Shown here piece by piece: positions 16,921 through 64,000 of a stretch of DNA of 64,000 nt (position 1 is the stretch's first letter; every line of letters begins with the position of its first letter). The notes beneath the pieces are model-generated. The model was given only the letters and a program-made list of their open reading frames with translations. It was not told the DNA's origin and searched no databases. A program made the translations under genes and the position numbers. The stretch lies in NCBI RefSeq assembly GCF_003334255.1, contig NZ_QOWU01000018.1; one strand, given 5' to 3'. The DNA is from Escherichia coli (lineage in GTDB: Bacteria; Pseudomonadota; Gammaproteobacteria; Enterobacterales; Enterobacteriaceae).

Positions 16921-16921
16921 A

Positions 16922-25389: not shown

Positions 25390-25923
<534 letters not shown>

Positions 25924-25962
25924 TTGGTGCTCCCCGTTGGATCGGGGATAAACCGTAATTGA

Positions 25963-26148
<186 letters not shown>

Positions 26149-26228
26149 TCACGCATCTGCGTGATGAAGCTTAGTGAGGATTTTCCCCAGGCAACTGGGG
26201 AAAGACCAAACCGGGCGGCGACGATACC

Positions 26229-27299
26229 TTGACACGTCTAACCCTGGCGTTAGATGTCATGGGAGGGGATTTTGGCCCTTCCGTGACAGTGCCTGCAGCA
26301 TTGCAGGCACTGAATTCTAATTCGCAACTCACTCTTCTTTTAGTCGGCAATCCCGACGCCATCACGCCATTACTTGCTAAAGCTGACTTTGAACAACGTT
26401 CGCGTCTGCAGATTATTCCTGCGCAGTCAGTTATCGCCAGTGATGCCCGGCCTTCGCAAGCTATCCGCGCCAGTCGTGGGAGTTCAATGCGCGTGGCCCT
26501 GGAGCTGGTGAAAGAAGGTCGAGCGCAAGCCTGTGTCAGTGCCGGTAATACCGGGGCGCTGATGGGGCTGGCAAAATTATTACTCAAGCCCCTGGAGGGG
26601 ATTGAGCGTCCGGCGCTGGTGACGGTATTACCACATCAGCAAAAGGGCAAAACGGTGGTCCTTGACTTAGGGGCCAACGTCGATTGTGACAGCACAATGC
26701 TGGTGCAATTTGCCATTATGGGCTCAGTTCTGGCTGAAGAGGTGGTGGAAATTCCCAATCCTCGCGTGGCGTTGCTCAATATTGGTGAAGAAGAAGTAAA
26801 GGGTCTCGACAGTATTCGGGATGCCTCAGCGGTGCTTAAAACAATCCCTTCTATCAATTATATCGGCTATCTTGAAGCCAATGAGTTGTTAACTGGCAAG
26901 ACAGATGTGCTGGTTTGTGACGGCTTTACAGGAAATGTCACATTAAAGACGATGGAAGGTGTTGTCAGGATGTTCCTTTCTCTGCTGAAATCTCAGGGTG
27001 AAGGGAAAAAACGGTCGTGGTGGCTACTGTTATTAAAGCGTTGGCTACAAAAGAGCCTGACGAGGCGATTCAGTCACCTCAACCCCGACCAGTATAACGG
27101 CGCCTGTCTGTTAGGATTGCGCGGCACGGTGATAAAAAGTCATGGTGCAGCCAATCAGCGAGCTTTTGCGGTCGCGATTGAACAGGCAGTGCAGGCGGTG
27201 CAGCGACAAGTTCCTCAGCGAATTGCCGCTCGCCTGGAATCTGTATACCCAGCTGGTTTTGAGCTGCTGGACGGTGGCAAAAGCGGAACTCTGCGGTAG
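26229..27299 (+). CDS. plsX: phosphate acyltransferase PlsX
   Basis: 356-aa ORF matching PlsX. Confidence 0.95.
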
Positions 27300-27366
27300 C
27301 AGGACGCTGCCAGCGAACTCGCAGTTTGCAAGTGACGGTATATAACCGAAAAGTGACTGAGCGTAC

Positions 27367-40854: not shown

Positions 40855-41232
40855 ATGAGAAAAGGATGCTTTGGGCTGGTGTCTCTGGTGTTGTTACTGC
40901 TGGTGGGCTGTCGTTCACATCCGGAAATTCCGGTGAATGATGAGCAATCGCTGGTGATGGAGTCATCTTTATTGGCTGCGGGCATCAGTGCAGAAAAGCC
41001 CTTCCTTTCGACGTCTGATATTCAACCTTCAGCATCCTCAACGCTTTATAACGAAAGGCAAGAACCCGTTACCGTTCATTATCGTTTTTACTGGTATGAC
41101 GCCAGAGGGCTGGAGATGCATCCTCTGGAAAGGCCACGCAGCGTTACCATTCCCGCACATTCGGCGGTAACGCTGTACGGCAGCGCCAATTTTCTGGGGG
41201 CGCACAAAGTCAGACTTTATCTATATTTGTAA
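40855..41232 (+). CDS. ycfL: lipoprotein YcfL
   Basis: 125-aa ORF with lipobox LLLLVGC. Confidence 0.9.
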   Translation: MRKGCFGLVSLVLLLLVGCRSHPEIPVNDEQSLVMESSLLAAGISAEKPFLSTSDIQPSASSTLYNERQEPVTVHYRFYWYDARGLEMHPLERPRSVTIPAHSAVTLYGSANFLGAHKVRLYLYL

Positions 41233-41245
41233 GGGGTGAATCTTG

Positions 41246-41867
41246 ATGACAAAAATGAGTCGCTACGCCTTGATTACCGCGCTGGCGATGTTTCTCGCCG
41301 GGTGTGTGGGGCAACGTGAACCTGCACCGGTAGAAGAAGTGAAACCAGCGCCGGAACAACCAGCCGAGCCACAACAGCCTGTCCCCACAGTGCCCTCGGT
41401 GCCGACGATCCCGCAGCAGCCAGGCCCAATTGAGCACGAAGATCAAACTGCACCGCCTGCGCCGCATATTCGCCATTATGACTGGAATGGCGCAATGCAG
41501 CCGATGGTCAGTAAGATGCTTGGGGCTGACGGGGTGACTGCGGGTAGCGTCCTGCTGGTTGATAGCGTTAACAACCGTACTAACGGTTCGCTGAATGCCG
41601 CAGAAGCGACCGAAACGCTGCGAAATGCGCTGGCTAATAACGGGAAATTTACCCTGGTTTCCGCCCAGCAACTGTCGATGGCGAAGCAACAGTTAGGTTT
41701 GTCGCCGCAGGACAGTTTAGGCACCCGTAGTAAAGCCATAGGCATTGCCCGCAATGTCGGCGCTCATTACGTGCTGTACTCCAGCGCCTCTGGCAACGTT
41801 AACGCTCCGACCCTACAAATGCAGCTGATGCTGGTGCAGACGGGCGAAATTATCTGGTCAGGTAAAG

Positions 41868-41887
<20 letters not shown>
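41246..41887 (+). CDS. lpoB: outer-membrane lipoprotein LpoB (activator of PBP1B)
   Basis: ORF-track frame trimmed to the ATG at [20 protein letters not shown] (lipobox); proline-rich linker; 213 aa. Confidence 0.93.
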
Positions 41888-43728
<1,841 letters not shown>

Positions 43729-43750
43729 CCCTGGCTTATGTGAGGAAGCG

Positions 43751-44293
43751 ATGATTATCTATTTACACGGTTTTGACTCTAACAGTCCGGGTAACCACGA
43801 GAAAGTCTTACAATTGCAGTTTATTGACCCGGATGTACGCTTGATAAGCTACAGTACGCGGCATCCGAAACATGATATGCAGCATCTGCTTAAAGAAGTG
43901 GACAAAATGTTGCAACTGAACGTTGACGAGCGTCCGCTAATTTGCGGCGTTGGCTTGGGCGGATACTGGGCGGAACGGATTGGTTTTCTTTGCGACATCC
44001 GCCAGGTGATCTTCAACCCTAATTTGTTCCCTTATGAGAACATGGAAGGCAAGATTGATCGCCCGGAAGAGTATGCCGATATTGCCACTAAGTGTGTGAC
44101 CAACTTCCGTGAGAAGAATCGCGATCGTTGCCTGGTGATTTTGTCGCGTAATGATGAAGCGCTTAACAGCCAGCGGACATCTGAAGAGTTGCATCATTAT
44201 TACGAGATTGTCTGGGACGAAGAGCAGACGCACAAATTCAAGAATATCTCCCCGCATTTACAGCGCATTAAAGCGTTCAAAACCCTCGGGTAA
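43751..44293 (+). CDS. ycfP: UPF0227 alpha/beta-hydrolase-fold protein YcfP
   Basis: ORF-track frame trimmed to [18 protein letters not shown]; 180 aa. Confidence 0.9.
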
Positions 44294-44299
44294 ATGCCC

Positions 44300-44425
44300 T
44301 CGTCGCATCAGGTAACCTTGCCGGTACCTGATGCGCTCCGAATTCTGTGGGTCGGATAAGGCGTCCACGCCGCATCCGACAGTCGAGCATCAATGCCTGA
44401 TGCGCTTCTTATCAGGCCTACCGAA
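44300..44425. repeat. REP/BIME cluster between ycfP and ndh
   Basis: Three palindromic REP units: GCATCAGGTA…TACCTGATGC, GTCGGATAAGGCGTCCACGCCGCATCCGAC, GCCTGATGCGCTTCTTATCAGGCCTAC. Confidence 0.85.
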
Positions 44426-44692
44426 CGCCCTGCATACACCCCTCACTCTATATCACTCTCACAAATTCGCTCAAATAATAAACAATAAACTCTGTTTTTT
44501 GATCTCACCCGGTAAAGTCGCCTATCTTTTCAGCAACAAAACTTGATTAACATCAATTTTGGTATGACCAATGCACCATTCATGTTATTCTCAATAGCGA
44601 AGAACATTTTCATTGCTGTAACCTGTTGTTAATTAAGAGCTATGTTAATAACCATTAATTAACAATTGGTTAATAAATTTAAGGGGGTCACG

Positions 44693-45997
44693 TTGACTAC
44701 GCCATTGAAAAAGATTGTGATTGTCGGCGGCGGTGCTGGTGGGCTGGAAATGGCAACACAGCTGGGGCATAAGCTGGGACGCAAGAAAAAAGCCAAAATT
44801 ACGCTGGTCGATCGTAACCACAGCCACCTGTGGAAACCGCTGCTGCACGAAGTGGCGACTGGCTCGCTTGATGAAGGCGTCGATGCGTTGAGCTATCTGG
44901 CCCATGCGCGCAATCATGGTTTCCAGTTCCAGCTGGGTTCCGTCATTGATATTGATCGTGAAGCGAAAACAATCACTATTGCAGAACTGCGCGACGAGAA
45001 AGGTGAACTGCTGGTTCCGGAACGTAAAATCGCCTATGACACCCTGGTAATGGCGCTGGGTAGCACCTCTAACGATTTCAATACGCCAGGTGTCAAAGAG
45101 AACTGCATTTTCCTCGATAACCCGCACCAGGCGCGTCGCTTCCACCAGGAGATGCTGAATTTGTTCCTGAAATACTCCGCCAACCTGGGCGCGAATGGCA
45201 AAGTGAACATTGCGATTGTCGGCGGCGGCGCGACGGGTGTAGAACTCTCCGCTGAATTGCACAACGCGGTCAAGCAACTGCACAGCTACGGTTACAAAGG
45301 CCTGACCAACGAAGCCCTGAACGTAACGCTGGTAGAAGCGGGAGAACGTATTTTGCCTGCGTTACCGCCACGTATCTCTGCTGCGGCCCACAACGAGCTA
45401 ACGAAACTTGGCGTTCGCGTGCTGACGCAAACCATGGTCACCAGTGCTGATGAAGGCGGCCTGCACACTAAAGATGGCGAATATATTGAGGCTGATCTGA
45501 TGGTATGGGCAGCCGGGATCAAAGCGCCAGACTTCCTGAAAGATATCGGTGGTCTTGAAACTAACCGTATCAACCAGCTGGTGGTGGAACCGACGCTGCA
45601 AACCACCCGCGATCCAGACATTTACGCTATTGGCGACTGCGCGTCATGCCCGCGTCCGGAAGGGGGCTTTGTTCCGCCGCGTGCTCAGGCTGCACACCAG
45701 ATGGCGACTTGCGCAATGAACAACATTCTGGCGCAGATGAACGGTAAGCCGCTGAAAAATTATCAGTATAAAGATCATGGTTCGCTGGTATCGCTGTCGA
45801 ACTTCTCCACCGTCGGTAGCCTGATGGGTAACCTGACGCGCGGCTCAATGATGATTGAAGGACGAATTGCGCGCTTTGTATATATCTCGCTATACCGAAT
45901 GCATCAGATTGCGCTGCATGGTTACTTTAAAACCGGATTAATGATGCTGGTGGGGAGTATTAACCGCGTTATCCGTCCGCGTTTGAAGTTGCATTAA
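44693..45997 (+). CDS. ndh: type II NADH:quinone oxidoreductase (NDH-2)
   Basis: ORF-track frame trimmed to TTG start (M)[18 protein letters not shown] (FAD-binding GxGxxG); 434 aa. Confidence 0.95.
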
Positions 45998-46206
45998 TCG
46001 ACGTACACTGGCGGATGTGGCATAAACGCCTCATCCGCCCTTGAGGAACAGCGCGATCGGCAGCCGCGTTGTATCAGGCATCCTTTCAGACTCCTCCGAA
46101 TCCTTAAGTATTTCCAGCCATTCCCGCGCTTTTCATCTTCTGTCTGATAGCTGCTTTTCTCCTTCGCTTGCATGATTGGCATAACTGCAAAGAAGGAGGT
46201 GTTCCC

Positions 46207-46746
46207 GTGAATAAATCAATGTTGGCGGGTATCGGGATTGGTGTCGCAGCTGCGCTGGGCGTAGCGGCAGTGGCCAGTCTGAACGTGTTTGAACGGGGCC
46301 CGCAATACGCTCAGGTTGTTTCTGCAACCCCAATCAAGGAAACGGTTAAAACACCGCGTCAGGAGTGTCGCAACGTCACAGTGACCCATCGTCGACCGGT
46401 GCAGGATGAAAATCGCATTACCGGGTCGGTGCTCGGCGCTGTTGCTGGCGGCGTGATAGGGCATCAGTTTGGTGGTGGTCGCGGTAAAGATGTCGCCACT
46501 GTTGTGGGGGCGCTGGGTGGTGGATATGCCGGTAACCAGATCCAGGGCTCTCTCCAGGAAAGCGATACTTACACGACTACGCAACAGCGTTGTAAAACGG
46601 TGTATGACAAGTCAGAAAAAATGCTCGGTTATGATGTGACCTATAAGATTGGCGATCAGCAGGGCAAAATCCGCATGGACCGCGATCCGGGTACGCAGAT
46701 CCCGCTAGATAGCAACGGGCAACTGATTTTGAATAACAAAGTATAA
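46207..46746 (+). CDS. ycfJ: glycine-zipper outer-membrane protein YcfJ
   Basis: ORF-track frame trimmed to GTG start (M)NKSMLAGIGIGVAAALG; 179 aa. Confidence 0.88.
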   Translation: MNKSMLAGIGIGVAAALGVAAVASLNVFERGPQYAQVVSATPIKETVKTPRQECRNVTVTHRRPVQDENRITGSVLGAVAGGVIGHQFGGGRGKDVATVVGALGGGYAGNQIQGSLQESDTYTTTQQRCKTVYDKSEKMLGYDVTYKIGDQQGKIRMDRDPGTQIPLDSNGQLILNNKV

Positions 46747-46768
46747 CAAGGCTGTACTCTGCAATTTG

Positions 46769-46802
46769 GCCCCTCATTCGCTCAGGCTGAGGGGCTTTTT
46801 TT
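46769..46802. terminator. intrinsic terminator between convergent ycfJ and comR
   Basis: GCCCCTCATTCGCTCAGGCTGAGGGGC hairpin followed by a T7 run. Confidence 0.8.
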
Positions 46803-46807
46803 GCGAC

Positions 46808-47440
46808 TTATTTCACCAGTTCGGGCCATAAACGCAAAGTCGTTCCGGCAATCTGCATCAATTTTTCCAGCGATGCACCTTCGCGTGCGCTGATCGACAT
46901 CCCCTGAATAATACAATTAAGGAATTCTGCCAGATGTGTCACGTCACAGTGGGGCGGGATTTCCCCGCGCGCTTGTCGTTGACATAAAAACTGCTGCAAA
47001 GTGCGCTCTTGCATCGCATGGCGTGATTTCAACGTATTGGCGATATCTCCTGAATCTGGGGAGAGGGTGGTGCAGTTGTTGATCATGAAGCAGCCTGCCG
47101 GGGTGTCTTTGCTGGTAAAGCAGTTGGCGATGGCAGCAAAATAGTCAGCCAGCGCAGACTCCACGCTTTTCTCTTCACAAAACAGCTGTGCTTCATGCTT
47201 AGCGGCAAAACGATCGATATAGCGGTCGAGAACGGCACGAAATAACCCCTCTTTGTTGGTAAATTCCGCGTATAGCGTGGGCGCTTTGGCTCCGGTCGCT
47301 TCGACGAGGTCCGCAAGAGAAGTCGCTTCATAACCGTGTTGCCAGAACAATTTCATGGCCTTATCAAGCGCGGCATCCCTGTCGAACACTTTTGGGCGGC
47401 CACGGCTTTTTTTTACACATTGTGTTGAGTCAGTTGCCAT
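46808..47440 (-). CDS. comR: TetR-family transcriptional repressor ComR (YcfQ)
   Basis: ORF-track frame trimmed to MATDSTQCVKKSRGRPKVFD; TetR helix-turn-helix; 210 aa. Confidence 0.92.
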   Translation of the reverse strand: MATDSTQCVKKSRGRPKVFDRDAALDKAMKLFWQHGYEATSLADLVEATGAKAPTLYAEFTNKEGLFRAVLDRYIDRFAAKHEAQLFCEEKSVESALADYFAAIANCFTSKDTPAGCFMINNCTTLSPDSGDIANTLKSRHAMQERTLQQFLCQRQARGEIPPHCDVTHLAEFLNCIIQGMSISAREGASLEKLMQIAGTTLRLWPELVK

Positions 47441-47596
47441 GATGCCGTTGTACCTGGTGACTGTGAATGAAAGGTTATTATAAAAATAATCACCTCCGTT
47501 CACCAGTCCAGATCCCATAAAAATAATTGCTTTCTATTTAACTGAAATTTAAAGATTTTTAAATTAATTAATGATTGTTATAAAAAATATCTTGTA

Positions 47597-47612
47597 TGTG
47601 ATCCAGATCACA
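47597..47612. promoter_or_regulatory. perfect 16-bp palindrome in the comR-bhsA intergenic region (candidate ComR operator)
   Basis: TGTGATCCAGATCACA, about 70 bp upstream of the bhsA ATG in an AT-rich promoter region. Confidence 0.45.
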
Positions 47613-47680
47613 TCTATCATTTAGTTATCGATCGTTAAGTAATTGCTTGCGACGTCATTCATCTGCATAAGGCCACTATT

Positions 47681-47938
47681 ATGAAAAACGTAAAAACCCT
47701 CATCGCTGCGGCGATTTTAAGCTCCATGTCATTTGCCAGCTTTGCGGCTGTCGAAGTTCAGTCAACGCCAGAAGGCCAACAAAAAGTCGGTACAATCAGT
47801 GCTAACGCGGGGACAAATCTGGGATCGCTGGAAGAGCAGCTGGCGCAAAAAGCGGATGAGATGGGCGCAAAATCTTTCCGTATTACTTCTGTAACCGGTC
47901 CGAATACCCTCCATGGAACAGCAGTAATTTATAAATAA
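47681..47938 (+). CDS. bhsA: multiple stress resistance outer-membrane protein BhsA (YcfR/ComC)
   Basis: 85-aa ORF with signal peptide, YdgH/BhsA family. Confidence 0.93.
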   Translation: MKNVKTLIAAAILSSMSFASFAAVEVQSTPEGQQKVGTISANAGTNLGSLEEQLAQKADEMGAKSFRITSVTGPNTLHGTAVIYK

Positions 47939-47977
47939 GCATTAACCCTCATTAATGCCTGCTACTGCTGATTTTTT

Positions 47978-48010
47978 CCCCGCGACATGCCGTGTCGCGG
48001 GGATTTTTTT
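47978..48010. terminator. bidirectional intrinsic terminator between bhsA and ldtC
   Basis: CCCCGCGACATGCCGTGTCGCGGGG hairpin flanked by T-runs on both strands. Confidence 0.85.
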
Positions 48011-48019
48011 ATCCGGGCT

Positions 48020-48982
48020 TTACAGCGTTTGTGGGCTCACTTGATGACGGCGGACATCCACCGGCATCCCGGAACGGACATCCATCACATGTTGCATCAC
48101 TTCAGCGTCAGTTTGTGCTGCATCTTTAAATGATTGCATTGCGCTATTCAGCGTAATTGGCAGCAGCTGCGGATCGTCATCAATCTTCTCTGACAGCGGC
48201 TGATGTACTTCAACCAGACGCGCACCGTTTGGTTCGGCAGAGACTTTTATCGGAGTGTTGATGATATTCACTTTGGTGCCTGGGGTGACCTGGCTAAAGA
48301 GTGTTTTGATATCGTCATCCCGCAGACGAATACAGCCAGAACTTACCCGCATGCCAATGCCGAAATCGGCGTTCGTACCATGAAGCAAATAAACGCCGCC
48401 ATAGGCCGCCAGACGAATCGCATGATGGCCCATTGGGTTATCCGGTCCAGCCGGCACTACCGCAGGCAACTCAATTCCCTGTGCTTTATAACGGGCGCGG
48501 ATGTTTGCCGTTGGCGTCCAGGTTGGGTTTGCACGTTTGTCTGAAACGGTGGTCACCATTGTCGGTGTCAGCGTGTCACCACCTAACTGACCAATACCTA
48601 TTGGATACACGGTTACCGAATTTTTACCCGGCGGGTAGTAATAGAGACGCAGCTCCGCAATGTTGATCACAATGCCTTCGCGCGGCGCATCTGGAAGTAG
48701 GGTTTGCAACGGGATCGTTAACACGCTGCCCGCGCGCGGTACGTAAGGATCAACGCCGGGGTTAGCCTGTAACAGAGCGAGAAAGCCGACGTTGTATTTT
48801 TTGGCGATGGCTTCCAGAGAACCACCGTCATTTTCCACCACATGAAATTTGTTTTCGCCAACCAGACGACTGCCCGCTGGCGGCAGCGGCCAGGTGTTGG
48901 CTTTTGCCGGTAGCGCCAGCGCCACGGCAGCGGCGAACGTAAAAAACGTTAGCCAGCGAGAAAAACGCGTTTTGATCATCAC
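48020..48982 (-). CDS. ldtC: L,D-transpeptidase LdtC (YcfS)
   Basis: YkuD-domain ORF; start taken at the second codon of the 321-aa ORF (320 aa); either start is possible. Confidence 0.92.
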   Translation of the reverse strand: MMIKTRFSRWLTFFTFAAAVALALPAKANTWPLPPAGSRLVGENKFHVVENDGGSLEAIAKKYNVGFLALLQANPGVDPYVPRAGSVLTIPLQTLLPDAPREGIVINIAELRLYYYPPGKNSVTVYPIGIGQLGGDTLTPTMVTTVSDKRANPTWTPTANIRARYKAQGIELPAVVPAGPDNPMGHHAIRLAAYGGVYLLHGTNADFGIGMRVSSGCIRLRDDDIKTLFSQVTPGTKVNIINTPIKVSAEPNGARLVEVHQPLSEKIDDDPQLLPITLNSAMQSFKDAAQTDAEVMQHVMDVRSGMPVDVRRHQVSPQTL

Positions 48983-49125
48983 CAAAAATCCATAATAAAT
49001 ATAAGGTTATTGTAATAAACAGATAAGCCTGAATTATGGATGGTGACAGTGTCGGATAGTGCAGGGAAGTGCAAAGAATTTGTAAATGTTGCAGATGGGG
49101 GCGCAGAAACGCCCCCGATTTACCA

Positions 49126-52100
49126 TTAAGCGATCGCGTTCTCTTCCAGTTCACGCATAAACTGGCGTACCCATTCGATACGCGTTTTCCGCTCACTCAA
49201 ATCCTGAATAAATTTCAGGCGCGTCGGACCATCAAGGCGGTAATGCTGCGGCTGTTTTTGCAGCAAACCAATCAACCAGGCCGGATTAACGTGATTCTTC
49301 TCGGCAAATTCGATCACCCCGCCTTTCTCATTACCTTCCAGCTTCCTGATCCCCAGTTTCTGCGCTTGCTGGCGCAGACGGGCAATATCCAGCAGGGTAC
49401 GCGCCGGATCTGGCAGCAGGCCGAAGCGATCGATAAGCTCGACTTTGATCTCTTCCAGTTCGTTTTCCGTTTTGGCGCTGGCAATACGTTTGTAGAACGA
49501 CAGACGCGTGTTCACGTCAGGGATGAAATCATCTGGCAATAGCGACGGCATCCGCAGCTCGACTTCTGTTTGCTGGCTGGTGAGATCTTCCAGCGACGGC
49601 TCGCGTCCGGCTTTCAGTGCATCGACGGCGTTTTCCAGCAACTCCATATACAGCGAGAAACCGATGGTTTCCATTGAGCCGCTTTGTTCTTCGCCAAGCA
49701 GTTCACCCGCGCCGCGAATCTCCAGATCGTGCGTTGCCAGCGCAAAACCTGCCCCGAGATCTTCCAGCGAGGCAATTGCTTCAAGACGTTTTTGTGCATC
49801 GGTAGTCATCGCTTTTGGATGCGGTGTCAGCAACCATGCATATGCCTGATGATGCGAACGTCCGACGCGACCGCGTAACTGGTGCAGCTGCGCCAGACCG
49901 AAGTGATCCGCGCGTTCAATGATAATAGTGTTGGCTGTCGGGATGTCGATCCCGGTTTCGATAATGGTTGTACAAACCAGCACGTTGAAACGTTGATGAT
50001 GGAAATCATTCATCACCCGTTCCAGTTCGCGCTCGCGCATCTGCCCGTGACCGATGGCGATCCGCGCTTCTGGCACCAGTTCTGCCAGCCGTTCGGCGGC
50101 TTTCTGAATGTTTTCCACATCATTGTAGAGATAATAAACCTGTCCTCCGCGCAAAATTTCACGCAGGATCGCCTCCCGGACCACCATGCTGTCATACTCA
50201 CGGACAAAGGTTTTAACTGCCAGACGACGGGCGGGCGGCGTGGCGATAATCGACAGGTCACGCATTCCGCTCATTGCCATATTCAGCGTACGTGGGATCG
50301 GCGTTGCAGTAAGCGTCAGAATATCCACGTTCGCGCGCATCGCTTTAATGCGCTCTTTATGACGCACCCCGAAGCGGTGTTCTTCATCGACAATCAGCAG
50401 GCCTAAATCTTTAAACTTGACGTCACTTTGCAGCAGTTTGTGCGTACCGATCAGAATATCGATTTTCCCTTCCGCCACTTCCGCAAGGATTTGCGTCTGC
50501 TCTTTGGCGCTGCGGAAACGGGAGATCATTTCGATACGTACCGGCCAGTTGGCGAAACGGTCGCGGAAGTTGTCGTAATGCTGCTGCGCGAGAAGGGTGG
50601 TAGGCACCAGCACCGCCACCTGCTTGTGGTTATCTACTGCCAGGAAAGCTGCGCGCATCGCCACTTCTGTTTTACCAAAGCCAACATCGCCGCACACCAG
50701 ACGATCCATTGCCAGCGGCTGACACATGTCGCTAAGTACCGCATTAATGGCCTGCGCCTGATCCGGCGTGGTTTCAAACGGGAAGCTGTCGCAGAACAAC
50801 TGATACTGCTCACGATCGTGTTTAAACGCGAAGCCCTCTTTGGCGGCGCGTTGCGCGTAGATATCCAGCAATTCCGCCGCCACATCACGCACTTTTTCCG
50901 CCGCTTTCTGCCGCGCGCGTGACCACGCATCGCCGCCAAGTTTATGCAGCGGGGCGTTTTCTTCCGCGCCACCTGCGTAACGGCTAATCAGATGCAGTGA
51001 CGACACCGGAACATACAGTTTGGCGTCGTTGGCATAGGTGAGCATCAGATACTCGCCAGTAATGCCACCCGCTTCCAGCGTGGTCATTCCGGCATAACGA
51101 CCGACGCCGTGCTCCAGATGGACCACCGGCTGACCAATATGCAGTTCCGCAAGGTTACGGATCAGTGTATCGGGGTTGATGGTGCGGCGAGAATCCTGAC
51201 GACGACGGGCAACGCGTTCACCGAGCAGATCGCTTTCGCAAATCAGCGCCAGATTACGCACCGTATCGACAAAACCATGTTCGGCAGCGCCAATCATCAG
51301 ATAACGCCCACGGTCGCTGGCTTCATCAAGACGCATAATGCGTTGCGGAGCAATTTTAATTCGTGCGAGCAGTTCACCCAGCGCTTCACGGCGACCTTCA
51401 CTTTCTACCGAGAACACCACCGGACCGTCGAAAGTCTCGAGGAACTTACGCAGCGCATCCAGCGGCGCTTTTTGTTGTGCCTGAACGGCCAGGTCTGGCA
51501 GTTTCTGGAAACCTAAATTGGCATTCGCGGCTTTTGTCGGTAAATGTTCAGTTTTTAGCTGCACCCGGGGCCAGTTTTTCAGCTCTGAGAAGAGCTCGTC
51601 CACCCGCAGCCAGAGCGATTGTGGTGGCAACAGCGGGCGCATCGGATCGACGCCGCGATTCTCAAAACGCGCCAGCGTGTCAGCCTGGAAACGTTCGGCA
51701 CTGGTTTCCAGATCGCCAGTATTCACGAGCAAGGTATTGGCAGGGAAATAACTGAACAGCGGCGGCAGTGGTTCGCTGAAGAACAATGGCTGCCAGTACT
51801 CGATCCCGGCAGGTAATGTGCCTTTACTCACTTGCTGGTAAATATGTTCTGGATCGCGCTTCACTTCGAAGGTATCGCGCCACTGGCTGCGGAACAGTTC
51901 AATTGCCGCTTTATCGGTCGGAAATTCGTGCGCGGGCAGCAGATTGATCGCTTCTACTTCCTCCAGCGTGCGCTGGCTGTCGACGTCAAACACCCGCAGG
52001 CTGTCGATTTCATCATCAAAGAAATCAAGACGATAAGGCAGCTCACTCCCCATCGGGAAGAGATCCAGCAACGCGCCGCGCGTGGCGTATTCGCCGTGCT

Positions 52101-52572
52101 CCATCACCTGGTCAACATGGCGATAACCGGCGCTGTCCAGTTGGGTTCGTAATGCATCTCGTGACAGGCGCTGACCTTTTTTCATCACCAGCGCATGACC
52201 GTGGAGAAAACTGTGTGGGCAAACGCGCTGCATAAGCGTATTCACCGGAACAATCAGTACGCCACGCTGCATCGTCGGTAGCTGGTAAAGGGTGGAAAGG
52301 CGCGAGGAGATAATGTCCTGATGAGGCGAAAAACTGTCGTAGGGAAGAGTTTCCCAGTCCGCCAGATTCATCACCATTTGATCGGTAAACTGGCTGATTT
52401 CATCATGCAAACGCAGAGCATTTTGCATATCTGGTGCAATGAGTACCACCGGACCGGCGTGACGTTCGGCAATTTCCGCTACCAGCGTTGCACAGGCTGC
52501 GCCGGTTAACTCGCCCAGCAGACGCTGCTCACCCGCTTTGACGGGCAGCGTATAACGATATTGTTCAGGCAT
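49126..52572 (-). CDS. mfd: transcription-repair coupling factor Mfd
   Basis: ORF-track frame trimmed to MPEQYRYTLPVKAGEQRLLG; 1148 aa; helicase motifs. Confidence 0.97.
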   Translation of the reverse strand: MPEQYRYTLPVKAGEQRLLGELTGAACATLVAEIAERHAGPVVLIAPDMQNALRLHDEISQFTDQMVMNLADWETLPYDSFSPHQDIISSRLSTLYQLPTMQRGVLIVPVNTLMQRVCPHSFLHGHALVMKKGQRLSRDALRTQLDSAGYRHVDQVMEHGEYATRGALLDLFPMGSELPYRLDFFDDEIDSLRVFDVDSQRTLEEVEAINLLPAHEFPTDKAAIELFRSQWRDTFEVKRDPEHIYQQVSKGTLPAGIEYWQPLFFSEPLPPLFSYFPANTLLVNTGDLETSAERFQADTLARFENRGVDPMRPLLPPQSLWLRVDELFSELKNWPRVQLKTEHLPTKAANANLGFQKLPDLAVQAQQKAPLDALRKFLETFDGPVVFSVESEGRREALGELLARIKIAPQRIMRLDEASDRGRYLMIGAAEHGFVDTVRNLALICESDLLGERVARRRQDSRRTINPDTLIRNLAELHIGQPVVHLEHGVGRYAGMTTLEAGGITGEYLMLTYANDAKLYVPVSSLHLISRYAGGAEENAPLHKLGGDAWSRARQKAAEKVRDVAAELLDIYAQRAAKEGFAFKHDREQYQLFCDSFPFETTPDQAQAINAVLSDMCQPLAMDRLVCGDVGFGKTEVAMRAAFLAVDNHKQVAVLVPTTLLAQQHYDNFRDRFANWPVRIEMISRFRSAKEQTQILAEVAEGKIDILIGTHKLLQSDVKFKDLGLLIVDEEHRFGVRHKERIKAMRANVDILTLTATPIPRTLNMAMSGMRDLSIIATPPARRLAVKTFVREYDSMVVREAILREILRGGQVYYLYNDVENIQKAAERLAELVPEARIAIGHGQMRERELERVMNDFHHQRFNVLVCTTIIETGIDIPTANTIIIERADHFGLAQLHQLRGRVGRSHHQAYAWLLTPHPKAMTTDAQKRLEAIASLEDLGAGFALATHDLEIRGAGELLGEEQSGSMETIGFSLYMELLENAVDALKAGREPSLEDLTSQQTEVELRMPSLLPDDFIPDVNTRLSFYKRIASAKTENELEEIKVELIDRFGLLPDPARTLLDIARLRQQAQKLGIRKLEGNEKGGVIEFAEKNHVNPAWLIGLLQKQPQHYRLDGPTRLKFIQDLSERKTRIEWVRQFMRELEENAIA

Positions 52573-52699
52573 AACGGTTGTCAGATTCTCGTTAGGATAT
52601 GCCTCAACATATGGGGGCATATCTCTGATAAGCAATGCTGTTCATTATCCGTAATCGACATGGTTTAGCAAATTGAATCGCCCCGGCTGGGGCGATGGC

Positions 52700-53773
52700 T
52701 TAGCGGGAGTAACTGACGGCAGCGGGCAGTGAAGGCGGGGAGAACAACAGATCGCTGAATGCACGCTGTGAAAGTTTTCTTACCAGCAAGCCCGCAACAG
52801 TACAGATGAACAAACTGACAAAGGGATAAACCAGCAGGAGTGTCAGTTCGACTTGCGGCGACCAGCGTGCTGCGTTCATTTGCGCAAGCAGAGTTAAGCT
52901 GAATATTTCAACCAGAATGCGATGGGTGGTGTAGATAGCAATGGTGTTGGAGCCAATCACATTCAGCAGGCTGGTGGAGCGCATACCGAATCGTTGCTCG
53001 TATTGATAAAACAGCTTCATGATCACCACAATCGATACCAGCGACAACAGCAGCGAGATAGTAAACAACCAGGCACCGACCGCCAGAACGGTAAGCAAAG
53101 AAGCCATCAGCAGATGGCGGCGCAACGGCACCTCTTTAACACAGGTCATTATTGTTGCGCCAAACCATGCGCCAAGGCTGTAATAAGGCAAATTGCGGAT
53201 CACACTGTTCATTCCCCACCACGGCGTGGGAACGAAATTAACCGCCACACTCAGCAGTACAAACAAGGCGAATAGTGGCAGCGCCAGACGGCTAAAAATT
53301 TTACATACCACGAAATAGACAATTAACGCATACAGATACCACAAGCTGGTGCTGGCGGTGATCATCCCGTGCAGGAACTCACCGGTGGAATCGGCATAAG
53401 CGGCATTGGAGGCATTGCTTAAATCGCGCTCAGGTGCCAGCCACTGGTTCAGCGCACTTAACGCCAGCCACTGCACCACGCCCCAAAGCGCCAGCACCCA
53501 GAAGATGTTCCAGATCCGTTTATCGAGACAATTTCCCCACGGTACGCTGTCGATATAGCGGCGAATCAAATAGCCGGATATAAAGAAAAAAACCGGCATA
53601 CGAAAGGGGGCAAGGTAAAGATTGAAATAGATCCAGCATTTGCTCAGGACTTCCGATAACGGATGCTGAAAAGTGGTCAGATGCGGATAAAAGGTAATGA
53701 CCGAGTGATAAATCACCACCAGACAAATACATAACCCTTTGATCTGGTTAATCCATAGCTCTTTTTGTTTCAT
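52700..53773 (-). CDS. ycfT: acyltransferase-3 family inner-membrane protein YcfT
   Basis: 357-aa polytopic membrane ORF matching YcfT. Confidence 0.9.
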   Translation of the reverse strand: MKQKELWINQIKGLCICLVVIYHSVITFYPHLTTFQHPLSEVLSKCWIYFNLYLAPFRMPVFFFISGYLIRRYIDSVPWGNCLDKRIWNIFWVLALWGVVQWLALSALNQWLAPERDLSNASNAAYADSTGEFLHGMITASTSLWYLYALIVYFVVCKIFSRLALPLFALFVLLSVAVNFVPTPWWGMNSVIRNLPYYSLGAWFGATIMTCVKEVPLRRHLLMASLLTVLAVGAWLFTISLLLSLVSIVVIMKLFYQYEQRFGMRSTSLLNVIGSNTIAIYTTHRILVEIFSLTLLAQMNAARWSPQVELTLLLVYPFVSLFICTVAGLLVRKLSQRAFSDLLFSPPSLPAAVSYSR

Positions 53774-53923
53774 CAGGACAACACGCTCTTTTTTAATTTA
53801 CATGCGGTTGATCCTGCGGGTTATGACCCGAGGTGTAATGGGTATCTGTCTGTATTGGATGATTTTTCAGATTAAGATCAGGCGGCAAGATTGATGATAA
53901 AACATGGCAATTTAGCCGATTGA

Positions 53924-57172
<3,249 letters not shown>

Positions 57173-57200
57173 AGGCAGTACATTAAAACAAGGAGCGGCA

Positions 57201-58112
57201 ATGTATTACGGGTTTGATATTGGTGGAACAAAAATTGCGCTTGGCGTGTTTGATAGCGGTCGGCAGTTGCAGTGGGAAAAGCGGGTGCCGACACCGCGTG
57301 ACAGCTATGACGCATTTTTAGATGCAGTGTGTGAGCTGGTAGCTGAAGCTGACCAACGTTTTGGCTGTAAAGGTTCTGTCGGCATCGGTATTCCGGGAAT
57401 GCCGGAAACAGAAGATGGTACGCTGTATGCCGCCAATGTCCCCGCTGCCAGCGGTAAACCGCTGCGTGCCGACCTGAGCGCACGTCTTGATCGCGATGTA
57501 CGCCTTGATAACGATGCCAACTGTTTTGCCCTTTCAGAAGCCTGGGATGATGAATTTACTCAATATCCACTGGTGATGGGGTTGATTCTCGGCACCGGCG
57601 TTGGCGGCGGGCTGATTTTCAACGGCAAACCGATTACCGGTAAAAGCTACATTACCGGCGAGTTTGGCCATATGCGTCTGCCGGTTGATGCGTTAACCAT
57701 GATGGGGTTGGATTTCCCGTTACGCCGCTGCGGCTGTGGTCAGCATGGCTGCATTGAAAATTATCTGTCTGGTCGCGGTTTTGCGTGGCTGTATCAACAC
57801 TATTATCATCAACCGTTGCAGGCTCCCGAAATTATTGCGCTTTATGATCAAGGCGATGAGCAGGCAAGGGCGCACGTTGAGCGTTATCTGGATTTATTAG
57901 CGGTTTGTCTGGGAAATATCCTGACCATTGTTGACCCTGACCTGGTCGTCATTGGTGGTGGCTTATCGAATTTCCCGGCAATCACAGCGCAACTGGCGGA
58001 CAGGCTGCCTCGTCATCTCTTACCTGTAGCTCGTGTTCCGCGCATTGAACGCGCGCGCCACGGTGATGCGGGAGGAATGCGTGGTGCGGCCTTCCTACAT
58101 CTAACCGATTAA
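57201..58112 (+). CDS. nagK: N-acetyl-D-glucosamine kinase
   Basis: ORF-track frame trimmed to [18 protein letters not shown] (ROK family); 303 aa. Confidence 0.95.
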
Positions 58113-58127
58113 ACAACAGAGGTTGCT

Positions 58128-58967
58128 ATGCTGTCGCGTCGGGGTCATCGGTTAAGTCGTTTTCGTAAAAATAAACGCCGCCTGCGCGAGCGTTTGCGTC
58201 AGCGTATTTTTTTCAGAGATAAAGTGGTGCCGGAAGCAATGGAAAAACCAAGAGTACTCGTACTGACAGGGGCAGGAATTTCTGCGGAATCAGGTATTCG
58301 TACCTTTCGCGCCGCAGATGGCCTGTGGGAAGAACATCGGGTTGAAGATGTGGCAACGCCGGAAGGTTTCGATCGCGATCCTGAACTGGTGCAAGCGTTT
58401 TATAACGCCCGTCGTCGACAGCTGCAGCAGCCAGAAATTCAGCCTAACGCCGCGCATCTTGCGCTGGCTAAACTGCAAGACGCCCTCGGCGATCGCTTTT
58501 TGCTGGTGACGCAGAATATCGACAACCTGCATGAACGCGCAGGTAATACCAATGTGATTCATATGCATGGGGAACTGCTGAAAGTGCGTTGTTCACAAAG
58601 TGGTCAGGTTCTCGACTGGACAGGAGACGTTACCCCAGAAGATAAATGCCATTGTTGCCAGTTTCCGGCACCCTTGCGCCCGCATGTAGTGTGGTTTGGC
58701 GAAATGCCACTCGGCATGGATGAAATTTATATGGCGTTGTCGATGGCCGATATTTTCATTGCCATTGGCACATCCGGGCATGTTTATCCGGCGGCTGGGT
58801 TTGTTCACGAAGCGAAACTGCATGGCGCGCACACCGTGGAACTGAATCTTGAACCGAGTCAGGTTGGTAATGAATTTGCCGAGAAATATTACGGCCCGGC
58901 AAGCCAGGTGGTGCCTGAGTTTGTTGAAAAGTTGCTGAAGGGATTAAAAGCGGGAAGCATTGCCTGA
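58128..58967 (+). CDS. cobB: NAD-dependent protein deacylase (sirtuin) CobB, long isoform
   Basis: 279-aa ORF with basic N-terminal extension and internal in-frame Met ([19 protein letters not shown]) consistent with a shorter isoform. Confidence 0.93.
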
Positions 58968-59056
58968 TGCACTACGCTTATCAGGCCTGCAAGGGGACGC
59001 AATTAATTGAATTTGCGGGTTTTGTGGGCCGGATAAGGCGTTCGCGCCGCAACCGG
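58962..59056. repeat. REP/BIME element between cobB and ycfZ
   Basis: GCCTGATGCACTACGCTTATCAGGCCTGC and GGCCGGATAAGGCGTTCGCGCCGCAACCGGC units. Confidence 0.8.
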
Positions 59057-59085
59057 CATAATACACACGCATTTTACTGTCTCTT

Positions 59086-59874
59086 TTACCGTTTACTCGT
59101 CAATAACAACACGGCAATAAACGTACAGACACCAATCAGCCCTGCCCAGAGTGGCGATATTCTGGTAATCGCAAAGCTATTATCGATATACAGGCATAAA
59201 GCCTGATAGCCCATATTGGCAATAGTCATCGCTACTGCAAATTTTAACGCATAAATAAAACGAGTCGTGTAGTAAAAGACCGAGGAAAATAAGACAAACG
59301 TTGCAGCCCAGGCGATAAAACCTAATGTGTTGGTGCTGCCGGGGGGATCATTTTCATGCTGTTTTCCTGGATGCGGATAATATGTTAGTGGAGGCGTCGG
59401 TTGTTTTAATATCTGTGCTTGTAGAACAGCCAATGCATTATTGATTCCCTGATACCAGAGGCCAGCATGTAAATAAGCCAGTGTGTGATTTTCTATCAGA
59501 AGGCCGAGATGTTTATCGTCCAGACCGCTTTCAACCTGGCCGTTGGTGATCATAATTAACCGTGGTTCGCGGGTAGTAAATAGTAACAGAACACTTCCTT
59601 TTACATCACTCAATGAAGATGACGCATGCGCCAGCATCGCTTTACCATTTTGTCTGAGACTGGCTTCATTATTAATGTCGGGTAAAACCACAATAAACGG
59701 TGCAATTCCCGTTTGTTGGCGAAAAAGCTCGGCTTTATGCGCGATCTCTTCAGCATCTGGTACAGTACCGGTAACGTCCGTAAAAAGTGTCTTCATTATT
59801 GGAATTAATGGCTTGCTGGCTGCTGTCAGAGGCAGGAGTATCAGTAAACTGAGCAGTATAATGAATTTTTTCAT
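59086..59874 (-). CDS. ycfZ: inner-membrane protein YcfZ
   Basis: 262-aa ORF with signal/TM segments matching YcfZ. Confidence 0.88.
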
Positions 59875-60332
59875 GGGCGGGACTTCCGTTTCCTGCGTGA
59901 TTTTTTAGAGGAGGGCATACTTATTAATAAACCGACGGCGATAAAAATAACGCCCATAATGCCGATAAACCCCCATTTAAAAAAATTAACCCACGGGTTA
60001 TTTATCTCAGCCTTTTCAGGATGCCCGGGAGAATAATAAACATTAACTTTATCGCCTTCGCTGTCTTCATAAAAATCGCTGCCGATACTCGAATTGAAAA
60101 TTAGCGTGTAATCTGGCGTCGGTCGAAAGGCAACGACGGGATACCACGAACCATCTTTACCCGTGCGATGAGAATGACTGGAGTGCCAGACGGTATCAAC
60201 AATGACGCCTTCGGTATGAATCGCGTCTTTGCTATAGGTGAACTGGTTATAAAAGACAACAACAGAAATGAGGATCAGTACCAGACCGATACCGAGGAAT
60301 ATACGAAAGAAAACTTTACTGTCCTGACTCAT
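59871..60332 (-). CDS. ymfA: inner-membrane protein YmfA
   Basis: ORF-track frame trimmed to [16 protein letters not shown]; 153 aa; overlaps the ycfZ start. Confidence 0.88.
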
Positions 60333-60352
60333 TAGCCACATCCTTGCTAACT

Positions 60353-60380
60353 AAAAAACGGGCGGTAATACCACCGCCCG
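60353..60380 (-). terminator. intrinsic terminator of the potD transcript
   Basis: CGGGCGGTAATACCACCGCCCG hairpin followed on the minus strand by a T6 run. Confidence 0.8.
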
Positions 60381-60389
60381 CTTGCTGAA

Positions 60390-61436
60390 TTAACGTCCTG
60401 CTTTCAGCTTCTGATAATACTCTTCATAAATGCTGCTGGCTGCGCCAACGTCATTCTGCCATTCGCCATTTTTAATGGTTTCAGCATCCGGGTAGAGCGT
60501 TTTATCGTTCGCCACTTCCGGGCTTAACAGCTTACGCGCCGCAAGGTTTGGCGTTGGATAACCGATAGTTTCGGCAACCTGTTTTGCCACATCCGGGCGC
60601 AGCAGGAAGTTGATCAATTTCAGCGCGCCTTCTTTGTTTTTGGCATTTGCCGGGATCGCCAGGCTGTCCATCCAGAAAATGCCGCCTTCTTTCGGCCATA
60701 CCACGTCAATTGGCGTACCCGCCTGGCGTGCAACGAAAGCAGAACCGTTCCAGATCATGCCGAGGTTAACTTCGCCTTCCATGTACGGGTTAGCCGGGTT
60801 ATCGGAGTTAAAGGCTGCCACGTTTGGCATCAGTTTTTTCAGCTCGTTATATGCAGCTTCAATCTCTTTCGGATCGGTGGTGTTACCGGAGTAGCCCAGC
60901 TTACGCAGCGCCATCTGGAACACTTCACGGGCATCGTCGGTCAACAGCAGGCTGCCTTTGTACTCAGGCTTCCACAGATCGGCCCAGCTGGTGACAGATT
61001 TCGGATCCACCGCATCACCGTTAACACCAATCGCCGTCGCACCCCAGATATACGGAATGGAGTAATCGTTATTCGGGTCAAACGGCTTATTGAGCATGTC
61101 TGGATCGAGATTGCTGAAGTTCGTTAACTTCGACTTGTCGATCTTCTGGATCATCCCTTCTTTACGCATTTTATCGACGTAATAGGTTGAAGGAACCACC
61201 AGGTCATAGGCACCGTCTTTGTACGTTTTCAGCTTGGCGTACATGGTTTCGTTCGACTCGTAAGTCGAATAGATAACCTTAATACCGGTTTCTTTGGTGA
61301 ATTGTTCAAGCAGTCCTGGCGGCACGTACTCGGTCCAGTTGTAGAAATACAGCGTGTTGTTGTCATCGGCGTGAGCGGCGCTCATGCCCAGTGCCAGAGC
61401 ACCCGCCGCGAGCAGGTGGCGTGACCATTTTTTCAT
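60390..61436 (-). CDS. potD: spermidine/putrescine ABC transporter periplasmic binding protein
   Basis: 348-aa ORF with signal peptide matching PotD. Confidence 0.97.
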   Translation of the reverse strand: MKKWSRHLLAAGALALGMSAAHADDNNTLYFYNWTEYVPPGLLEQFTKETGIKVIYSTYESNETMYAKLKTYKDGAYDLVVPSTYYVDKMRKEGMIQKIDKSKLTNFSNLDPDMLNKPFDPNNDYSIPYIWGATAIGVNGDAVDPKSVTSWADLWKPEYKGSLLLTDDAREVFQMALRKLGYSGNTTDPKEIEAAYNELKKLMPNVAAFNSDNPANPYMEGEVNLGMIWNGSAFVARQAGTPIDVVWPKEGGIFWMDSLAIPANAKNKEGALKLINFLLRPDVAKQVAETIGYPTPNLAARKLLSPEVANDKTLYPDAETIKNGEWQNDVGAASSIYEEYYQKLKAGR

Positions 61437-62227
61437 TTAACGTCCCCTGTGTTACCTTTCGTTTTATCACGAGCAATAAGCTGGCTGGCAATAACCATCA
61501 CCAGCGACAGCACCAGTAATATGGTTGCCAGCGCGTTAACTTCCGGCGATACGCCGACTTTGACCATCGAATAAATTTTTAACGGCAGAATTTCATAGCT
61601 TGGTCCGGTGACGAACGAAGAAACTACTACATCGTCCATCGACAGGGTAAAGCTTAACACCCAGCCCGCCGCCACCGCTGGCATTGCCAGTGGCAGAATG
61701 ATTTTTCGCAGAATGGTAAATTCGCTGGCACCGAGATCTTTCGCCGCTTCCAGCATTCGCACGTCAAAACCTTTCAGGCGCGAATACACTGTCACCACCA
61801 CAAATGGCAGGCAGAAGGTGATATGCGAGAACAGCAGCGACCAGAAGCCAAGCTGAATACCCAGCAGCATAAACAGCACCAGCAGCGAAATCGCCATCAC
61901 GATATCTGGTGACATCATCACCACAAACAGCATTCCACTAACGAACGGCTTACCACGAAAGCGATAACGGTACAGCGCAACTGCCGTCAGTGAACCGATA
62001 AGCGTAGCAAATGTCGCCGAAAACACCGCCATTGTTAGTGAATGCTGCGCTGCCTGTAACAGGCTGTCGTTGTTCATCAGCAGGCTATACCATTTGGTGG
62101 TAAAACCCTGCCAGTTGATGCCAAAGCGCGAGCTGTTAAAGGAGTTCACAATCAAAATAATGATTGGGATATACAGGTACGCGTAGATAGCGGTCATAAA
62201 ACCGCCGCGAAGCAGTCGACCGATCAT
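61433..62227 (-). CDS. potC: spermidine/putrescine ABC transporter permease
   Basis: 264-aa ORF matching PotC. Confidence 0.96.
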   Translation of the reverse strand: MIGRLLRGGFMTAIYAYLYIPIIILIVNSFNSSRFGINWQGFTTKWYSLLMNNDSLLQAAQHSLTMAVFSATFATLIGSLTAVALYRYRFRGKPFVSGMLFVVMMSPDIVMAISLLVLFMLLGIQLGFWSLLFSHITFCLPFVVVTVYSRLKGFDVRMLEAAKDLGASEFTILRKIILPLAMPAVAAGWVLSFTLSMDDVVVSSFVTGPSYEILPLKIYSMVKVGVSPEVNALATILLVLSLVMVIASQLIARDKTKGNTGDVK

Positions 62228-62250
62228 TCGAGTTCCACCTTTTTATTCAT
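62224..62250 (-). other. putative prophage attachment-site core retaining the last codons of potB
   Basis: Minus-strand frame ends …SRLMNKKVELE-TGA with the stop overlapping the potC ATG; this resembles the PotB C-terminus as I recall it, while the sequence upstream is not PotB-like. Core boundaries are estimated. Confidence 0.4.
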
Positions 62251-62393
62251 AAGGCGGGACACTTTCAGGATTTTGAATTTATTCAATTTTTCCCTTTCTC
62301 CAAAATCTCTCCAAAACGTTTCCCCAAAACTAGGCCACGCATTTTACAACACTTTTTTCCTGAGATGGTGACGGATATTCCATATGGTGTTTG

Positions 62394-63512
62394 TCAAATA
62401 ACCAACTTAACCCATTCCTGACCTCGAGTATCGTTATAGCGATCGGTGGTTGCCTGGACTTTATGTCCTAGTAATGTTTTTGTATCGATACCCTGTGCAC
62501 GGTACAGCCGTTCTGATAGAGAGCGTTGTTCATGAAATGTTGGCGGAGTTTTTCCTGCTGGTGGAATTATCCCAGCCAGATCCCGTGCTTTGGCAAAGTA
62601 GTCGCTCAGGTTGTCTTTACTCATCGGCTTCGGTTGTTTCTGGTGCCGACTATGGATTAGATATGGACTTAATATTCTGTCTCGGCACCCATCAATAACT
62701 TCTTTTAACGTTATCCCAATGGCATCACAGCGTAGTGTAAGCGGTAACGCCAGACGCATTCCGGTTTTTCCCTGGGTGATATGCAAGTGTTCGTTCCACA
62801 CATCTGAAAAACGCATGTGGCAAATGTCATCACGGCGCTGACCAGTAACAATCGCAAGAAGCATTGCGTTACGGATAAAGTGTTTTTCAGGCGTTGCATT
62901 GTAAATTTTTTGCCAGTCTTCCATGGTGAGCCTGGCTCTGGTTACTTTAGGGATCGGTTTACGGGTAGCCTCCGGAGGATTCCATCCAGGAGGAACTTCC
63001 CCTGCATGCTGTGCTTCTTTATAAATATCAACCCATAATCCACGATTTACTCTCGCTGTGCTGACCATGTCTTTATCCAGCCACTCATCCAGTATTAATG
63101 CAAAGTCTCTTACTTCCAGTTCTTTCAATGGGTGGTTTCCCAGACGGGAAACCAGGTATGCAGCCATTCGAGTTTTTTCTTTGTGAGTTGTAGCTGCAAT
63201 ATCTCCATTTTTCAGTCGCGTGTCCTGTATTTTCAGATATCGATCAACCCATGCCTTTAATCTGATACCCCGACGTTTTGTTGCTGACGGACTTTCATCA
63301 ATTTTGCGCATGAAATATTCAGCTTCTGCTGCAGCTATTCGCTGATTGGCTGTGGAAGCGATTTTTTCTGCCTTACCTTTGTCTGTTCCGAGTCCGTGAA
63401 ATTTTCCAGTCACAGGATTTTTATACTGGTAGTAAACTCTGCCAGTTCTGCGATCAAACTTTTCGTAAAGACCGGCTACGTCAGTGCTGTTTTTTCGTGG
63501 CCTCGGTGACAT
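62394..63512 (-). CDS. int: phage integrase, tyrosine recombinase (lambda Int family)
   Basis: 372-aa ORF; C-terminus TFHEQRSLSERLYRAQ…LLGHK…TDRYNDTRGQEWVKLVI parallels lambda Int (HxxR, H, Y catalytic residues); N-terminal arm-binding-like domain. Confidence 0.9.
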   Translation of the reverse strand: MSPRPRKNSTDVAGLYEKFDRRTGRVYYQYKNPVTGKFHGLGTDKGKAEKIASTANQRIAAAEAEYFMRKIDESPSATKRRGIRLKAWVDRYLKIQDTRLKNGDIAATTHKEKTRMAAYLVSRLGNHPLKELEVRDFALILDEWLDKDMVSTARVNRGLWVDIYKEAQHAGEVPPGWNPPEATRKPIPKVTRARLTMEDWQKIYNATPEKHFIRNAMLLAIVTGQRRDDICHMRFSDVWNEHLHITQGKTGMRLALPLTLRCDAIGITLKEVIDGCRDRILSPYLIHSRHQKQPKPMSKDNLSDYFAKARDLAGIIPPAGKTPPTFHEQRSLSERLYRAQGIDTKTLLGHKVQATTDRYNDTRGQEWVKLVI

Positions 63513-63750
63513 GAGTTAAAATCTCCTTCAGTGCATCATCATCGCCAGTATGAATTTCCGGCGCAATTCCCGTTTCACCAGGCCCAACAAATACTGCTCG
63601 GCGATCTATCAGCCAACGCCCACGAATTTTTTGTGGCCTTGGAACGATGTATCCTAGTTTTCCGTATTTCACCAGGGTAGTGTTTGTTATTGGGAGACTG
63701 AACCGTTTTGGTTTCCACTCGTCGAGCGTTATCAGGTACTGTTCGCTCAT
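63481..63750 (-). CDS. xis: excisionase (Xis-like)
   Basis: MSEQYLITLDEWKPKRF… resembles the lambda Xis N-terminus (MYLTLQEWNARQRRPR); overlaps the int start by 32 bp as in lambda. Start may instead be 63759 (MIAMSEQ…). Confidence 0.75.
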   Translation of the reverse strand: MSEQYLITLDEWKPKRFSLPITNTTLVKYGKLGYIVPRPQKIRGRWLIDRRAVFVGPGETGIAPEIHTGDDDALKEILTHVTEATKKQH

Positions 63751-63811
63751 GGCTATCACTCCGGAACGCGCCAGTTGCAGAATATCAACGACAACTGGCG
63801 ACGGTTGAACA

Positions 63812-64000
63812 TTAAAAATCAGCCTGACTCGGGATCAGTTTTTGCCAGATAACTGAAACGTATTTTGCCTGGTAACGGGCGTCATCAAGTGCATTATGGC
63901 GCTCACCTTCGAATGGAATAGCCGTTCTGGCATCGAAGTCTATGGCTTTCCCCAGCTCAACGATTGTGCGTACATCGCGATCGTTGTAGTAACGCCACGG
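63812..64000 (-). CDS. phage DnaQ-like (DEDDh) 3'-5' exonuclease, C-terminal 62 codons only
   Basis: Minus-strand frame ends …AIPFEGERHNALDDARYQAKYVSVIWQKLIPSQADF-stop; H-x-A-L-x-D-A motif matches exonuclease motif III of the DnaQ superfamily. Confidence 0.6.
   Translation of the reverse strand, partial: PWRYYNDRDVRTIVELGKAIDFDARTAIPFEGERHNALDDARYQAKYVSVIWQKLIPSQADF

Follow-up and report, generated by a model that had tools for sequence, protein, structure and literature searches.

The integrase-proximal end of a lambdoid prophage at the potB/potC junction of Escherichia coli

Among the closest described systems are those of phage lambda, whose arm-type integrase site is C/AAGTCACTAT, and of phage 21 and e14, which insert in the 3' end of icd and bring a substitute 3' end with them. 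The boundary between potB and potC is itself a published target: one study lists a prophage at potC/potB with a 99%/100% match to Sakai Sp6 (PMC8190617); prophage J of O104:H4 lies at potB/potC (PMC3486847); Stx2 phages disrupt potAB-CD, with one integrase type among the potC-integrated phages (PMC9453080); and large compound prophages occupy potC in UK O157:H7 (PMC10925052). A passage of PMC8065619 credits the first report of potC as an Stx-phage site to Steyert et al. 2012. The first-pass annotation of the DNA considered here had named the pot locus as a reported insertion site of lambdoid phages, which is confirmed by these records (PMC8190617, PMC3486847, PMC9453080 and PMC8065619).

Here we analyze a stretch of 64,000 nucleotides from an E. 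coli contig (the window), the end of which reaches into such an element. We are highly confident that positions 62236-64000 represent the attL, i.e., integrase-proximal, end of a lambdoid prophage, which integrated site-specifically at the 14-bp attB core CACCTTCTTATTCA in the 3' end of potB and thereby cut potCD off from the potA promoter, probably leaving these genes to read-through transcription. The prophage junction as such is already known and common; it is real but ordinary. Given that the site has been published and that the junction recurs in about 30% of complete genomes, it carries little weight as a discovery. What the present analysis adds is, on the one hand, a base-exact att core along with candidate arm sites and, on the other, the finding that PotB regains a near-native C-terminus from the phage and that the translation signals of potC are preserved.

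The junction and its att core

In a whole-window alignment, positions 1..62249 match K-12 MG1655 1121393..1183642 as a single collinear segment of 99.892% identity (62,250 columns, of which 66 are mismatches and one is a 1-bp gap). This K-12-like stretch starts inside dinI and ends at 62249, 22 bp ahead of the start codon of potC; past this point the similarity is lost. Thus, two statements of the first-pass annotation, namely that the window follows the core E. coli order from dinI to potC and that the prophage end is its sole accessory DNA, hold throughout 1..62249. The features around the point of divergence are as follows:

60390-61436, minus strand: potD, from the ORF map
61433-62227, minus strand: potC, intact, 264 aa; from the ORF list, the PotC annotation in matching genomes and collinearity with K-12 potC
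62228..62249, minus strand: last 22 nt of potB, still joined to potC; from the K-12 alignment and the three-way attL/attB/attR alignment
62236-62249, no strand: att core, attL copy, 14 bp, CACCTTTTTATTCA; from the three-way alignment
62250..62393, no strand: P' arm, 144 bp between core and int, with three tandem repeats
62297-62305, same orientation as the other repeats: repeat 1, TCTCCAAAA, a TCYCCAAAA match
62308-62316, same orientation as the other repeats: repeat 2, TCTCCAAAA, a TCYCCAAAA match
62321-62329, same orientation as the other repeats: repeat 3, TCCCCAAAA, a TCYCCAAAA match
62394-63512, minus strand: int, lambda-type tyrosine integrase, 372 aa; from Pfam, PHROG and the lambda Int alignment
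63481-63750, minus strand: xis, excisionase, 89 aa from ATG; from PHROG, Pfam and RefSeq annotation
63812-64000, minus strand: 3' end of a RecE/exonuclease VIII-type gene, last 62 codons and stop, cut by the window end

Downstream of the int end of the prophage, the host genes resume with potC, which a gap of 166 bp separates from int. That an intact potB is absent upstream of it, as claimed in the first pass, proved correct: what remains is the final 22 nt of the gene, which read CCCGCCTTATGAATAAAAAGGTGGAACTCGAATG on the minus strand and hold both the att core and the ribosome-binding stretch of potC, AAGGTGGA. The same annotation had placed the junction at 62228; the insertion between potB and potC stands, whereas the boundary has to be shifted, with the similarity to K-12 continuing to 62249 and phage-only DNA beginning at 62250.

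The core itself was delimited by aligning the attL of the window with attB, the potB/potC junction of K-12, and with attR, taken from E. coli G1/2 (NZ_CP060083.1), a strain in which the whole prophage can be seen; the 14 bp are the only bases common to all three. They fall within the final codons of potB, 9-22 nt ahead of the ATG of potC. Both attB and attR read CACCTTCTTATTCA, with a single T/C difference from attL at 62242. Since the base in attL at 62242 is the phage T and its counterpart in attR the bacterial C, strand exchange most likely took place on the potC side of 62242. On the assumption that the attR of G1/2 represents that of the window's strain, the exchange would most likely fall in the CACCTT part of the core.

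The attP site was reconstructed from the attL of the window and the attR of G1/2. The only two phage entries matched over the full length, ON470612.1 and ON470619.1, were rejected as a free-phage source of attP, being prophage predictions with host flanks from mfd to potC. In ON470612.1 ('Escherichia phage vB_EcoS-640R1'), positions 1-12862 consist of chromosomal DNA of the host (12.9 kb; mfd, ycfT, lolCDE, nagK, cobB, ycfZ, ymfA, potD, potC), and ON470619.1 probably opens with host chromosome likewise. ON470612.1 is hence a prophage prediction with a host flank and no packaged genome; matches to it are no proof of a viable phage.

The recombination genes and the P' arm

The first-pass annotation had described an integrase, an overlapping excisionase and an exonuclease gene, all transcribed toward potC, and the ORF map agrees: all three lie on the minus strand and are directed toward potC. 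This arrangement of int, xis and recombination genes at one end of the element, adjoining att and transcribed toward it, is a lambdoid trait. The 372-aa protein is, by its domains and active-site residues, a lambda-type arm-binding tyrosine integrase and the predicted attP x attB recombinase. Its residues 1-64 match the N-terminal arm-type DNA-binding domain (Pfam PF09003, Arm-DNA-bind_1, E 7.3e-21) and residues 194-363 the catalytic Phage_integrase family (PF00589, E 3.8e-18), with further matches to PHROG integrase families. Against the sequences of the lambda Int structures (1z1b), residues 26-371 could be aligned with E 4e-54, and this alignment pairs the complete R-K-H-R-H-Y set of the protein (R226, K249, H327, R330, H350 and Y359) with R212, K235, H308, R311, H333 and Y342 of lambda.

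The excisionase gene overlaps the start of int by 32 nt; an alternative GTG start at 63759 would extend its product to 92 aa. Xis belongs to PHROG 629, excisionase (E 4.6e-26), with a weaker match to Pfam Exc (PF07825, E 8.9e-5), and its counterpart is named excisionase in RefSeq genomes. The similarity of Int and Xis to phage recombinases proposed in the first pass is therefore substantiated by Pfam, PHROG and the lambda Int structures. The comparison of the exonuclease fragment with phage sequences, suggested in the first pass, also gave matches: the fragment recurs in many lambdoid phages, where it is annotated as exodeoxyribonuclease VIII, and the full-length protein of G1/2 (813 aa) matches PHROG exonuclease families with E down to 4e-265. 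A scan of 61000-64000 against Rfam, at E up to 1, yielded no structured RNA.

The P' arm between the core and int carries the three repeats listed above. The pattern TCYCCAAAA has just three matches in the whole 64-kb window, all of them within 33 bp of this arm. Related repeats occur in the P arm at the attR of G1/2, at -125, -139 and -54 from the core and in the same orientation. By analogy with P'1-P'3 of lambda, these repeats are probable candidates for arm-type Int binding sites. A consensus IHF site was absent from the P' arm.

The P arm at the attR of G1/2 further displays, at about 180-213 bp from the core, a perfect 10-bp GC-rich hairpin (CCTCCCCGAC...GTCGGGGAGG), which lies just past the att site as seen from int; neither strand shows a clear T-run. 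In lambda, sib/tI, which serves in the retroregulation of int, occupies roughly the same position. If the hairpin acts on int transcripts of the free phage, integration would separate it from int, comparable to lambda retroregulation.

Briefly, the following mechanism would account for the junction. Int, together with host bending factors, would have recombined attP with attB to produce the observed attL, and Int with Xis would reverse this integration.

The element in strain G1/2 and across E. coli

Over window positions 41400-64000, G1/2 shows 3 differences in 22,601 aligned positions. These lie at 46861, 54550 and 63770, the last in the spacer between xis and the exonuclease gene, with G in the window and A in G1/2. 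The source strain of the window is thus very close, although not identical, to G1/2, which together with the similarly close G6/7 and G8 belongs to a set of German human faecal isolates.

In G1/2, a 45.3-kb element lies between potB and potC, complete with both att sites and with attR adjoining potB. From the int end it encodes int, xis, exo, dicB and ydfABC, followed by a cI-like gene, cro, a ydaT-like gene and replication genes; the middle comprises hokD, rusA, Q, three tRNAs, an iraM-like gene, holin, lysozyme and Rz; and the remainder consists of terminase, portal, capsid and tail genes (including major capsid and tape measure), gpJ, lom, tail fibres and a methyltransferase by attR. By this gene order the G1/2 element is a lambdoid genome. 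The label 'lambdoid' given in the first pass is hence supported through the 45.3-kb prophage of G1/2 at the same junction, whereas the 1.75 kb in the window could not by themselves establish it. The size, completeness and cargo of the element in the window's strain are extrapolated from G1/2, the window covering 1.75 kb of it. Neither these 1.75 kb nor the annotation of the G1/2 prophage shows stx or other virulence cargo.

Certain further details of the G1/2 prophage (L001 24948-36000 and L002 16826-17817) may be recorded. It contains a Qin-like dicB-ydfABC segment, hokD, a second iraM-like gene and lom; the tRNA genes after Q are Ile, Arg and Arg; and the methyltransferase next to attR is SAM-dependent.

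The alternative that survives best is that the window's strain carries a decayed, non-inducible remnant, in which the int-xis-exo end was kept while the remainder was deleted or mutated. The window ends 1.75 kb into the element, leaving its completeness out of view; several genes of the G1/2 proxy are flagged as frameshifted or partial, and its cI-like gene spans 339 nt as against 600 nt in ON470612.1; and other genomes (H13, H22-H24) have IS insertions in this int region. We nevertheless consider decay rather unlikely: int, xis and the visible end of exo are intact reading frames with all catalytic residues in place, and G1/2 retains the terminase and the head, tail and lysis modules in full, along with both att sites.

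Prevalence was assessed across 5426 complete E. coli genomes. The attL junction, represented by a 264-bp query across attL at a coverage of at least 80%, is found in 1624 of them (~30%), and the empty potB/potC site, represented by a 265-bp query across the K-12 junction, in 3800. Occupied and empty sites thus account for 5424 of the 5426 genomes, which implies that the attL seen here is the junction in essentially all occupied genomes. By these counts, about 30% of complete genomes carry an element with the same P' arm at potB/potC. A longer 2.6-kb query (potD-end/potC/int/xis/exo) is covered to at least 80% in 1604 genomes. Given the Int match (E = 4e-54) and the identical junction in 1624 genomes, the observation cannot be attributed to chance.

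These data also bear on the notion of a non-phage integrative element at the pot site, for instance a genomic island or a phage-inducible chromosomal island, equipped with a phage-type integrase. While an integrase and an excisionase alone cannot separate phages from satellites or islands, a RecE-type exonuclease beside xis is the layout of the lambdoid early-left region, and the query shared at 80% coverage or more by the 1604 genomes includes 189 bp of the exonuclease gene. Moreover, the element of G1/2 is a 45-kb lambdoid genome and the published elements at potB/potC are prophages. An island is accordingly rejected as very improbable. An assembly chimera of potC with an unrelated prophage end, for which nothing but the closeness of the junction to the window end could be cited, is hardly credible and was rejected, since the junction recurs base-identical in 1624 independently assembled complete genomes and its breakpoint falls within the 14-bp core that is also present in attR.

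The divergence of the flank from K-12 is uneven. There are about 9 differences over the first 57 kb of the window, as against 32 differences plus a 1-bp gap within 480 bp at 59049-59527 (the spacer between cobB and ycfZ together with the 3' part of ycfZ) and 22 further differences at 60498-62242. On the potB side of the prophage, G1/2 diverges from K-12 by 0.94% over 6.4 kb. With a divergent tract on the potC side and a likewise divergent potB side in G1/2, the prophage is, by this pattern of differences, situated inside a tract of non-K-12 ancestry (57599-62242 in the window) within an otherwise K-12-like backbone. Import of the prophage and its flanks together by homologous recombination would fit this tract.

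The split pot operon and known systems

Returning to the site-specifically integrated prophage that we favor, its effect on the pot operon can be followed at both ends. At the attR of G1/2, the phage supplies the 3' end of potB, so that PotB changes from ...LLNKKVELE* to ...LLNKKVSELDD*. At attL, potC retains its native AAGGTGGA stretch at an unaltered distance from the ATG; the single altered base lies farther upstream. The RefSeq lengths of PotB are 287 aa in G1/2 (potB start at L002 15731) and 275 aa in K-12 (potB start at L003 19445); 2 aa of this gap come from the phage-derived C-terminus and the other 10 aa from a different start-codon call.

However, the prophage in its entirety (~45 kb in G1/2) now stands between potCD and the potA promoter. 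No terminator-like site was detected on the minus strand from int to potC. A standard scan of 61900-64000 returned no promoter, and a relaxed scan upstream of potC gave four weak 8-of-12 matches and no convincing sigma-70 promoter. Likewise, a cII-type, lambda pI-style TTGC-N6-TTGC signature, with 1 mismatch allowed, was absent from 62228-64000. Given that the ribosome-binding site of potC is kept and that no terminator intervenes between int and potC, potCD would most likely be transcribed by read-through from int/xis transcripts, or else from a weak promoter in the phage end. More tentatively, one might entertain that the spermidine-uptake genes potC and potD are driven by the int/xis transcripts of the phage to the extent that polyamine import is coupled to the state of the prophage in about 30% of strains; we regard this as possible, but hardly as the expected outcome. 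Searching the literature on lysogens of this site for spermidine uptake or the expression of potCD brought up nothing beyond listings of the site and one microarray statement on EDL933, which groups potABCD together without per-gene data; the phage is elsewhere said to 'disrupt' the pot operon (PMC9453080).

Among known systems, the Sakai Sp6-type prophages of O157:H7, prophage J of O104:H4 and the Stx2 phages integrated at potC in LEE-negative STEC such as O113:H21 share the same potB/potC site. In contrast to these Stx2 phages, no stx is seen in the part of the element inside the window or annotated in G1/2. Based on the genome counts (1624 and 3800) and the published match to Sp6 (PMC8190617), we infer that it belongs to the Sp6-like potB/potC prophages.

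The gene beside xis falls in the same RecE/ExoVIII PHROG families as RecE (exonuclease VIII) of Rac; of this gene the window holds the last 62 codons, and the exonuclease assignment is made from sequence. With lambda, the element has in common the order of core, P' arm and int, the three tandem candidate repeats here taking the place of P'1-P'3, as well as the three-part architecture and catalytic residues of Int, an xis that overlaps int and the transcription of int toward att. It departs from lambda in the core sequence and target, the 3' end of potB as opposed to gal-bio; in the sequence of the putative arm sites, which are TCYCCAAAA-like; and in having neither a consensus IHF site in the P' arm nor a cII-type pI signature.

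Finally, in terms of the target, phage 21 and e14 at the 3' end of icd offer a parallel: here too, a host gene receives a substitute 3' end from the phage, and PotB remains nearly full length. Unlike in those cases, the target lies inside an operon, such that potCD comes to lie ~45 kb from its promoter.
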